The notes: a model not told the origin generated them from the sequence alone. Shown: positions 42,092 through 44,281, counted from the first letter of the stretch. The stretch is DNA of 44,281 nucleotides from an uncultured Clostridia bacterium (GCA_944332315.1 CALVJT010000018.1:1-44281); one strand, 5' to 3'. Made by a program: numbers and translations.

Positions 42092-44271
42092 TTATACAAC
42101 AATAGAATTGTTTAATCCTCCATTCACGCCCGCAATTGTTATACTGTACTCACCAGTACTATTCTCTTTATTTGGCACAATAAAGGTAAATGTACTGCCT
42201 GTCTTTTGCCCTTCACCACCAAAATCAACTTGCCATAGGTACGGCTTAGATACCACTATCTTGTACTCTTGCCCTTGCATAAGTTGTACACTAATTGTTT
42301 GCGCACTTGCTATGTACATTTGCTCAATTATATCCTCGCCTTGCATAAAGTACACTACAGCACCCATATCCCCCGTTTGTGCCATCGTAACTGCTATACT
42401 AATATCACATATAGGCTTTTCTACCACACCACTTACATTAAAAGACTGCTGTATGTTGCTTAGCGTAAACTCTACTTGATTGCCACTTGTAGTATAAGAA
42501 TAATTGCAATAATTAGGTATACTGCCACTTGTTGCGCTTGTTCCTACAACTATTTCTTGCCCACCTATGTTTATAGTAAAGTTGTATGCGGATGTATCTA
42601 TATTATCATACACTAACTGCACTTGTCCGTTCAAAGTATTATCATTTTTTAAGGCATAAACTCCCTTGTTTTGTATTATTGTTGTTGCAATATCTCCCGA
42701 TTGTGGCATAACCACTACATCTCCCGTAGTAGCCCCCGCTGATACACTTGCTAGCACATTGTTTGCTAGTTCCTTAAGATTGAGATGGAGCGCAACCCGC
42801 ACGCCGAGATTATCGTGGACAATGGAATTGCTGTCGTCACCATCTGAGTAGACTTCGCGCGCGAGATTAGAGTTTATTGAAGTGTCGGAACGCAGCCACG
42901 CCGAGGAACCCGTTGCTCTATCGTACCCGTTTAGTTCCCATAAGCCTGTTCGTCCATCCTTTCCTTTTGTCCACGATGAACTATCTATCTCTGTACTTGC
43001 TGTTGGAGACCTATCACTCATGCATGTGACAATTTCACCCTCATCAAAATATCTATCTGTACCTTGTATTGTAGCTACCGAACCTGAGTCAGCACTGTCG
43101 TAGCCAGTATGTAGTACTTCAAATGCGCTTGGTAGCCACAGTTTATCATTATATGTATCGGTATCTTGTGTTCCCCAATTCGACCATCTATCTCCCAAGC
43201 CATCCATTCCGTTGCCTACATTAAAATATGTAGAATTGCCTCCATAACCGCTTACTCCAGAACCTGTTTTAGTGCCCCCGTCGTGCGAAACTCCACGAAA
43301 GTCATTCCAACCAGTTCCACCACTATTGTAGGATGTTTGGTATGTGCTACTTTGCCAGCCTCCTAAGTTCAAGAAGTCTGTTTTATCTTGTAAATCTGAA
43401 TTTTGTATTTCGGATGCTGTACTTGATGATAGTTGGTATGGCGCTACTACATATATATCTAATTGAGCCCCTGTAAACGCAGTTGATAGTGTACTATATG
43501 TATTTTTTATTACGGTGCGTATATCACTATTTGTATAACCACCTGAAGAGCCAAACCTTTGTGAACTTATATAGTTATCTACCATATATAGTGTAAGTAC
43601 ATCCTCATCCTTGCTTACACTGCGATATACCGCTTGCCAGTACTGAGCTGTCGCATCATTAATATTATTTGCGTTAGCAACATCATTTGTAGTTTCAAAT
43701 AGTTTTACTACTATTTGTGCATTGCCCTTTTTGCTGTTTGCCCCCACTTCGCCCCAAGTACTTTGGTCTCCATAATTGCCAAAGTCTTTGGCTGTTAGAT
43801 ATTCTACATCTGTGTCATTTGTTGGCACTTTTTTATCATTTGATGTATCACTATCTCCACCATTCCACACATTTGTATTGTTTACCTTGTTTAGTAAATC
43901 TAGCAGTACGCTTGCATTTATGCCTGTCGTGGTAAATAGTGGATCTGCACCACTATTATCCTCTTTTTCGCCAACAATTGTTACTGGTGCATTATCATAC
44001 CAAGAAGTATCATCACTGGGTCTGCCCGCTTGCGTCAGGGTGCCCCTATTTTGCAGCACGGGTTGCAGAGCCAGCACGAACAAGGTTATAAACGCCAAAA
44101 GCCACATTACTATTTGTAATGTAGCAGATTGTTGTGTTTTTATTAGATTTTTAGATTTGTTATTTATATAAACACTTTTTTCATTAAATTTTGTATCAAT
44201 TTTTGTGCTCTTTTTTATAGGGGTAGAACTACCTACCCCCCCCCCCCTACTTTTTTATTATCAAAAAACAT
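42092..44271 (-). CDS. Putative phase-variable surface protein with a DUF6273/CLec-like domain and DGR-like variable region; out of frame at the poly-G tract as assembled
   Basis: SD AGGAG, then ATG 44271 reads MFFDNKKVGGGG* with G12. G13 joins a frame that is open from 44254 into the 671-aa ORF, giving 726 aa. Contains a TM anchor and YTNSDIR, DKLWLPSAFEV and WLRS...GVRVALHLNL motifs. Confidence 0.78.
42782..42910 (-). other. Candidate DGR variable region (VR)
   Basis: Encodes SSAWLRSDTSINSNLAREVYSDGDDSNSIVHDNLGVRVALHL. Hand count 71/130 GC (55%) over 42781-42910 versus ~28-42% in sampled flanking 60-nt blocks; variable-looking codons are nearly all NNC/NNT. Confidence 0.65.
44236..44247 (-). 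repeat. Homopolymeric G12 tract (C12 on + strand)
   Basis: Counted directly: 12 C at 44236-44247, starting at codon 9 of the gene. Confidence 0.95.
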
Positions 44272-44281
44272 ATGCGCTCCT

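Follow-up and report, generated by a model that had tools for sequence, protein, structure and literature searches.

Intragenic G-tracts that act as replication-slippage switches have been described in the pilus genes bbr_0113 and bbr_1889 of Bifidobacterium breve UCC2003 (Penno et al. 2022, PMC9187656). There a strong promoter, a Shine-Dalgarno (SD) sequence and an ATG serve a very short upstream open reading frame (ORF; 24 nt, bbr_0113a), and changes in the number of Gs fuse to it a large ORF without an SD, resulting in expression (PMC9187656). This is the closest experimental precedent for the locus analyzed here, which lies at the 3′ end of a 44,281-nt stretch of DNA from an uncultured Clostridia bacterium (GCA_944332315.1, CALVJT010000018.1:1-44281; hereafter the window): a run of twelve Gs on the minus strand, within the first codons of a predicted surface-protein gene, that very probably constitutes a slipped-strand contingency switch. 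As in B. breve, the organism is a Gram-positive gut commensal, expression signals are found only on a short ORF that runs into the G-tract, and the large surface ORF lacks an SD. Whereas B. breve carries two such loci, in pilus operons with LPXTG proteins and sortase, the genomes considered here carry 20-48 loci each, with a shared cassette preceding transmembrane (TM)-anchored proteins of at least three families; and whereas B. breve belongs to the high-GC Actinobacteria and was studied experimentally, the present system belongs to AT-rich Clostridia and is known from sequence alone.

Other described systems share parts of this design. Campylobacter jejuni NCTC11168 harbors 29 poly-G/C tracts of at least 7 nt (PMC4965091, PMC6321876). 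The likeness to the present case lies in a genome-wide poly-G set in a small genome, frameshift ON/OFF control, combinatorial surface phenotypes and a proportion of roughly one-third ON. Campylobacter tracts, however, are mostly G8-G11, vary in position, fall mostly in genes for glycosylation and capsule enzymes and are not known to share a leader cassette, whereas those described here are G11-G16, always follow codons 6-13 of structural surface proteins, come with a conserved promoter and leader, and coexist with intact MutS1 and MutL. Combinatorial phase variation of a lipoprotein family is known from Mycoplasma hyorhinis and its Vlp system (cited in PMC11868660). Both there and here, each member of a multigene surface family has its own homopolymer tract, giving combinatorial coats. 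The vlp genes likewise share a highly conserved 5′ module of promoter and leader, but their tract is a poly-A in the promoter spacer, a transcriptional switch acting on lipoproteins of one family, whereas here the tract is a poly-G inside the coding leader, which would be a translational switch, and the bodies behind it belong to unrelated families. The opa genes of Neisseria, which encode Gram-negative outer-membrane proteins of a single family, carry CTCTT repeats in the signal-peptide coding region; they resemble the present loci in that a repeat in the N-terminal leader-coding part of a multigene surface family sets the frame and thereby expression, and differ in that the repeat is a pentanucleotide rather than a homopolymer. 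The mechanism considered here is classical slipped-strand phase variation and the locus itself is ordinary; a description of this system was not found in the literature searched, the coverage of which was incomplete.

Read on the minus strand, the end of the window presents AGGAG, the spacer cgcat, an ATG, seven further codons, G12 and a TAG, so that the reading frame stops after 12 codons (Table 1). The neighboring frame is open from 44254 to a stop at 42092 and holds the 671-codon ORF-track gene that begins at ATG 44107, and no in-frame ATG, GTG or TTG occurs between the tract and that ATG. Modeling of tract lengths from G9 to G17 gave full-length products only at G10, G13 and G16 (725, 726 and 727 aa), all remaining lengths yielding short peptides of 11-15 aa; the tract thus lies inside the reading frame, and one G more or less exchanges the full-length and the short product. 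At 12 nt the run exceeds the ~7-9 G/C from which a tract counts as hypermutable, and no run of this kind appeared in 100 dinucleotide-preserving shuffles of the window, which itself contains two runs of at least 12. The gene's N-terminal tail has 10 K+R vs 3 D+E, and the strongest hydrophobic window is TLQIVMWLLAFITLFVLAL; this charge distribution and hydrophobic segment would fit an N-in, C-out membrane anchor. These results agree in every detail with the original prediction for this locus, which had pointed to AGGAG-N5-ATG, a stop after 12 codons, an open neighboring frame lacking its own start, a 726-aa protein with a basic N-tail and TM anchor upon gain of one G, and a G12 run very unlikely to arise by chance.

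The tract belongs to a genome-wide set. The window is the entire contig C18 of a 1.33-Mb assembly in 77 contigs, in which the lengths of G/C runs are bimodal: 28 runs measure 11-16 nt, none measures 10 and only 18 measure 7-9, with a chance expectation for long runs of about zero. Oriented with G on the top strand, ~21 runs have a common layout of promoter, untranslated region (UTR), ATG, eight codons and G11-G16, usually followed by TA. The promoter is conserved across the 21 loci (TTGAT[A/T], ~17 nt, TGnTATACT), the cassette UTR ends in AAAAAGGAG, and the leader follows the consensus M-F-N/F-F-N-K-K-V. A strict SD-ATG-leader-G11 pattern found 20 matches in the genome, compared with 0 for a reversed control, and the G run occupies the sense strand in every cassette. 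Because GGG accounts for only 17% of glycine codons genome-wide, and because leaders read the G run in differing frames (GTA-GGG... vs TGG-GGG...), a pure-GGG run points to selection on the DNA and not the peptide, and the conserved object is the DNA run. Poly-G tracts of 11-13 nt also occur outside coding leaders (C37:4660-4671, C50:12453-12465, C77:16551-16561 and C33:2494-2504); several of these adjoin a TATAAT box or follow terminator-like hairpins, and they may represent promoter- or UTR-type switches. One cassette, at C54:5456-5470, has a broken tract (G9-A-G5) that may be a partly stabilized switch variant.

Tract length varied among homologous loci. For DUF6273-family loci that share this frame layout, with an ON length of 13, we observed lengths of 12 (the window), 14 (C2), 14 (C21), 14 (GCA_944372745.1, the closest homologue) and 13 (an ENA contig); the original prediction had named a G13 fixed in all accurate reads and related genomes as an outcome that would contradict it. 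A more distant homologue, the P0045 cluster, is represented by loci from the metagenome assemblies of three samples (L187, L188 and L189), all syntenic between spoIVA and transketolase. Their flanks match without a single difference (100% identity) for 250 nt on the upstream side and 1,900 nt on the downstream side, but the tracts read G15, G14 and G12, corresponding to ON, OFF and ON with one glycine fewer. Comparison of tract lengths across metagenome-assembled genomes (MAGs), one of the checks initially proposed, thus revealed variation between identical flanks at this homologous locus. Protein clusters at 90% identity mix fused (ON) N-termini with calls starting inside the tract or at the anchor Met (OFF), and include WGGGA and WGGGGA variants of one another. 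A candidate ON/OFF pair in cluster 1, P0007 vs P0051, was rejected because the P0007 contig begins 7 nt before the tract, its 'MGGGG' start being a contig truncation; the two tracts nonetheless differ (G13 vs G14). Of 22 loci in this genome, 6 are in frame, and two much more contiguous sister genomes have 8 of 25 classifiable loci in frame and 17 out. Pooled over the three genomes, ~30% of 47 loci are in frame; random phase predicts about one-third, whereas tracts fixed in frame and miscalled only now and then would not give such a proportion. The out-of-frame tracts include ones far from contig ends, in contigs >100 kb.

Homologues in independent assemblies also document the predicted fusion. 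Their proteins were called with the expected joined N-terminus, namely MFKNNKIVGGGGVGSS (P0004), MLMKIRKKVGGGGV (P0020) and MKYLTKWGGGGY (P0051, P0062 and P0083), and the P0004 locus consists of an SD and ATG, eight codons and G13, the length originally predicted to be ON. At the locus in the window, the sole promoter, SD and ATG sit upstream of the tract, and the large ORF is devoid of translation signals. Together with the G15/G14/G12 homologue, these upstream-only signals and fused N-termini support the view, put forward in the original prediction, of a slipped-strand phase-variable locus at the 5′ end of a surface gene.

The exact count of 12 is less secure, since the tract lies 34 nt from the contig end. 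Contig C46 ends with a stretch that includes the final 31 nt of the window; its positions 25924-26051 repeat the SD, ATG and leader, read the tract as G7AG6 (14 error-laden positions), and continue into a miscall-ridden copy of the next ~90 nt (44154-44281 of the window vs C46:25841-26051). Because of this repetition, C46 can be placed as the putative upstream neighbor, abutting C18 at the tract. It supplies the promoter, TTGATA with a 17-nt spacer and the extended -10 box TGtTATACT, followed by a ~40-nt UTR and GGAGGAG. That the contig ends disagree could be due to genuine heterogeneity or to base calls that deteriorate once a long G run has been passed. Given the assembly break and the differing C46 read, G12 is what the sequence says but is no dependable guide to how long the tract really is, and the earlier statement that the gene is OFF in this consensus, while literally true of the window, is biologically insecure. 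The leader and G12 form an exact 36-nt sequence present at three loci of the genome with unrelated downstream genes, which accounts for the assembler break at this tract. Many contig ends of the assembly adjoin such cassettes, several with poly-A or miscall tails after the tract; gene catalogues from this MAG will therefore split or truncate these genes.

We propose that transcription would begin at the sigma-A-type promoter with its extended -10 box on C46 and translation at ATG 44271, the ribosome reading eight codons (MFFDNKKV) before it reaches the tract. A tract of G10, G13 or G16 would be decoded as 3-5 glycines and lead into a protein of 725-727 aa, in which a basic tail of ~55 aa would lie in the cytoplasm, a single segment would cross the membrane and a large domain would face outward, the latter of the DUF6273 kind found in targets of diversity-generating retroelements (DGRs). 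At other lengths the ribosome would meet TAG right after the run and release an 11-15-aa peptide, leaving the gene off, and a single G gained or lost in replication would flip this state heritably and reversibly. A switch of the B. breve type would also entail polarity, with transcription decaying past the premature stop when the gene is OFF. The product would begin with MFFDNKK and yield the peptide VGGGGVGSSTPIK, in place of the MWLLAF expected from a start at 44107. Because the same cassette (promoter, SD, 8-codon leader, G11-16 and stops) stands before 20 or more genes, which belong to no fewer than three unrelated surface families, individual cells would display different random subsets of surface proteins. 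The anatomy, the enrichment across the genome, the conserved design and the differences in tract length between homologous loci that are otherwise identical are shown by the sequences; that the population switches, how fast it does so, and where the protein is located and what it does at the surface are parts of this scheme that we infer.

The same arrangement would have no regulatory meaning if the long ORF were translated from ATG 44107 independently of the tract, the mini-ORF with its G run being a separate leader or of no importance. In favor of this, the long ORF has its first conventional start codon at ATG 44107, and gene callers chose the equivalent Met in homologues P0021 and P0061. 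However, no SD-like sequence was found in the 25 nt ahead of it, and a promoter scan of this strand returned no promoter-like site between the tract and this ATG. The Met itself is not conserved, homologues having L, T, I-L or no residue in its place, and the next residue, W, is conserved. The 42 codons from the tract to Met 44107 are open, an outcome seen in 1.6% of shuffles, and in paralogues the open tail is 100-250 codons long, its limit coinciding exactly with the tract in every case; a product from 44107 would also lack the positively charged N-tail. Internal initiation therefore appears unlikely, as ATG 44107 has no SD and its Met is unconserved, and with fused N-termini called in homologues, this outcome, also anticipated as one that would contradict the original prediction, is disfavored to the point of being very remote. 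Attenuation of the Streptococcus gallolyticus pil1 type, in which the position of the leader stop relative to a terminator controls a separately initiated gene, could make use of the predicted RNA hairpin at the tract (z = -4.1; Table 1), within which both OFF-frame stops fall. Yet the hairpin is followed by AUAAAAAAG and no U-tail, so that it is predicted not to be a terminator, and a scan of this strand between the tract and ATG 44107 detected no terminator. The long ORF, moreover, lacks an independent start and at G13 is joined in frame to the leader, and homologues are annotated as fusions, which leaves attenuation barely credible. Post-tract hairpins recur at many loci with differing sequences (mean z = -1.6; 9 of 21 below -1.64). 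Examples include AGTTC-N5-GAACT, GTAGTA...TACTAC and GGGGUAGG...UCUACCCC, and one is also present at the closest homologue (L126).

Two further explanations accept the fusion and dispute that the DNA varies. In the more serious of these, a G13 is fixed in all cells, the gene is constitutive with a GGGG linker, and G12 is a homopolymer miscall. The proximity of the tract to the contig break fits this account, as do the obvious miscalls in the overlapping contig end and the clustering of observed lengths across loci within one base of the ON length. It predicts, however, that a majority of loci should be in frame, in conflict with the pooled proportion given above, and it does not accommodate out-of-frame tracts in the interior of large contigs or three otherwise identical assemblies that differ by up to 3 G and include two distinct in-frame lengths. 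In bacteria, a pure run of G12-16 is also intrinsically unstable, even with an in-frame consensus, which weighs against a fixed G13. A fixed tract fails for the system as a whole; for this single locus we consider it improbable. Alternatively, the DNA tract could be stable and slippage of RNA polymerase or ribosomal frameshifting could generate full-length protein as a small, unvarying share of the product. Transcription is able to slip on long homopolymers, and a hairpin lies directly downstream of the tract. Such non-heritable recoding is nevertheless opposed by the length differences in DNA between identical loci and between homologues, and by a hairpin located downstream, not upstream, of the slippery run. 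We regard it as highly improbable; slippage or frameshifting could add leakiness, and leaves the DNA polymorphism unexplained.

Several observations weigh against a contingency switch at this locus. The two contig ends differ on the tract (12 vs 14 positions), a disagreement that could be sequencing error and not biology, and since short reads are prone to error in the assembled length of G12-G15 runs, some of the ON/OFF scatter across loci could be artefact. No conspecific second assembly of the gene was found, its 671-aa product has no exact record, and its best non-self homologue is 49% identical. Surface exposure and function of the product are predicted from its sequence, and with MutS1 and MutL intact, switching rates may be lower than in Campylobacter.

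The genes behind the tracts are all built alike: after the leader come a run of glycines, a tail of 25-250 residues rich in K/N/S/T, a single hydrophobic segment and then a body that spans 350-1,300 residues. All-against-all BLAST and Pfam searches separated at least three unrelated body types: one with DUF6273 (this gene, genes on C2 and C21, and on C61 a fragment), a large one of eight members with GLUG motifs, and a type without Pfam match. The DUF6273 match of this gene (E=1.2e-6) supports its initial description as DGR-target-like, published accounts having linked the domain to DGRs and to phage receptor binding. A DGR target has its variable region in a C-type-lectin-like or DUF6273 domain, paired with a template repeat that differs at adenines and with a reverse transcriptase nearby. 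In this assembly, a blastn search with 42750-42950 recovered only paralogous copies and no A-specific template repeat, and no reverse-transcriptase partner was found. Sequence searches of NCBIfam, PHROGs and the PDB with the gene's protein returned nothing usable.

A C-terminal domain of ~90 aa (~42095-42355, minus strand), ending ...NNSIV(V/I), is common to the DUF6273 and GLUG-motif families. It recurs at the C-termini of proteins on C37, C8, C38, C39, C53, C54, C65 and C21, and most public homologues carry it, also in the form ...GDGSWKNCVVV. No Pfam match was obtained for this domain, which may serve as a common module for anchoring or display. The downstream neighbor (38576-41629, minus strand) encodes a lipoprotein-like protein of 1,017 aa with at least seven MBG (YGX-type) repeats. 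Because a separate promoter-like site, at 41790-41761 and with an extended -10 box, precedes this neighbor, the switch probably controls one gene only.

The window contains a second, independent poly-G switch (Table 1), which is preceded by a promoter, GAGGAGG and an ATG and serves a gene of the body type without Pfam match. Its protein and two paralogues (C55:1023 and C68:15466) share the motif LLSDSKTA(S/T)G after the anchor, which has no Pfam or NCBIfam match and which we take to resemble SipW/TasA-type signal peptides. Elsewhere in the window, 16360-16515 (minus strand) is a leader of ribosomal protein L10 of the ordinary kind (Rfam RF00557, 57 bits).

Table 1. Coordinates of the two tract loci in the window, counted from its first nucleotide
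Feature	Position	Strand	Remarks
Shine-Dalgarno AGGAG	44277-44281	-	Full GGAGGAG and promoter TTGATA-N17-TGtTATACT lie beyond the window, on contig C46:25841-25933
ATG (44271-44269) and TTT TTT GAT AAT AAA AAA GTA (44268-44248), leader MFFDNKKV	44248-44271	-	
Poly-G tract	44236-44247	-	G12 on sense strand, C12 on + strand; predicted ON at G10/13/16, otherwise OFF
TAGGTAG, two overlapping stops	44229-44235	-	TAG 44235-44233 and TAG 44231-44229; close both wrong frames 0-1 codon past the tract
Predicted RNA hairpin GGGGGUAGG-UAGU-UCUACCCCU	44219-44240	-	Pairs 3′ end of tract with downstream C-run (CCCC); encloses both OFF-frame stops
Basic K/N/T/S-rich tail, predicted cytoplasmic	44108-44233	-	42 codons, without internal start codon
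Hydrophobic membrane-anchor segment (MWLLAFITLFVLALQPVL)	44048-44107	-	ATG 44107 is the ORF-track start
Extracellular body of protein (predicted)	42092-44047	-	DUF6273 match ~43174-42779; C-terminal ~90-aa domain ~42355-42095
Second poly-G switch (putative), G14 after MRKNIMF	15224-15237	-	Needs G13 or G16; ORF 13584-15221, unrelated TM-anchored protein

Beyond this genome, two genomes of sister species contain 41 and 48 tracts of at least G11, with 26-28 strict cassettes each. Leaders are near-identical within a genome and differ between species: MFNFNKKV dominates in this genome, MKIQKNKML in G008 (~23 of 27 being variants of it), MIFRTKLL and MKYLTKW in G009, and MNKSEFENVKKL and MVKYLTKL in G006. 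Such homogeneity within genomes and divergence between species would be consistent with a 5′ cassette that evolves in concert or undergoes gene conversion. Any one large contig of G006 has its tracts all on the same strand. Small cassette sets occur in three other genera of the family, and the SD-ATG-leader-poly-G arrangement is essentially absent in 41 other families of the order. A family-wide trait was ruled out: plain G11 runs occur in 32 of 58 genera, but the full arrangement is concentrated in this genus. In a contig scan for the pattern AAARRTA-G11, only L103 (uncultured Clostridia bacterium E09__bin234) had a cassette among the matches listed, the others listed being unrelated or artefactual poly-G from many phyla. 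Campylobacter is known to lack MutS1 and MutL; here each of the 10 genomes of the genus encodes both proteins (MutS_I, MutL_C) in intact form, which rules out loss of mismatch repair as the cause of the tract load.

Collectively, the interest of these observations lies in the size and modularity of the switch set, its coupling to a DGR-type target domain and its bearing on phase variation in commensals (PMC11868660). For annotation, they imply that gene callers truncate or split these genes (MGGGG... and MMLWLL... starts), and that this gene should be scored neither as a pseudogene nor as a 671-aa product; for assembly, that many contig ends of this genome fall next to cassettes, the C18/C46 break overlapping one. 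A broader proposal, on which we are evenly divided, is that the genus possesses a modular phase-variable coat, in which 26-48 independent poly-G cassettes per 1.3-Mb genome, species-specific and uniform within a genome, have been grafted onto unrelated ectodomains. Under the same proposal, the DUF6273 subfamily, including this gene, would also be diversified by retroelements, stacking the rewriting of binding sites upon ON/OFF control in a mismatch-repair-proficient commensal whose relatives have sporulation genes. If true, this would be among the densest simple-sequence-repeat phasomes known, and a counter-example to multi-locus phase variation as a pathogen trait. Apart from that proposal, an uncultured genus of gut Clostridia has more poly-G switches per megabase than Campylobacter jejuni, all of them placed on predicted surface proteins behind a shared cassette, and a mechanism known mainly from pathogens very probably operates at large scale in a commensal. 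In strain-level ecology, phage and immune (immunoglobulin A) pressure on commensals may be met by stochastic switching of the coat.

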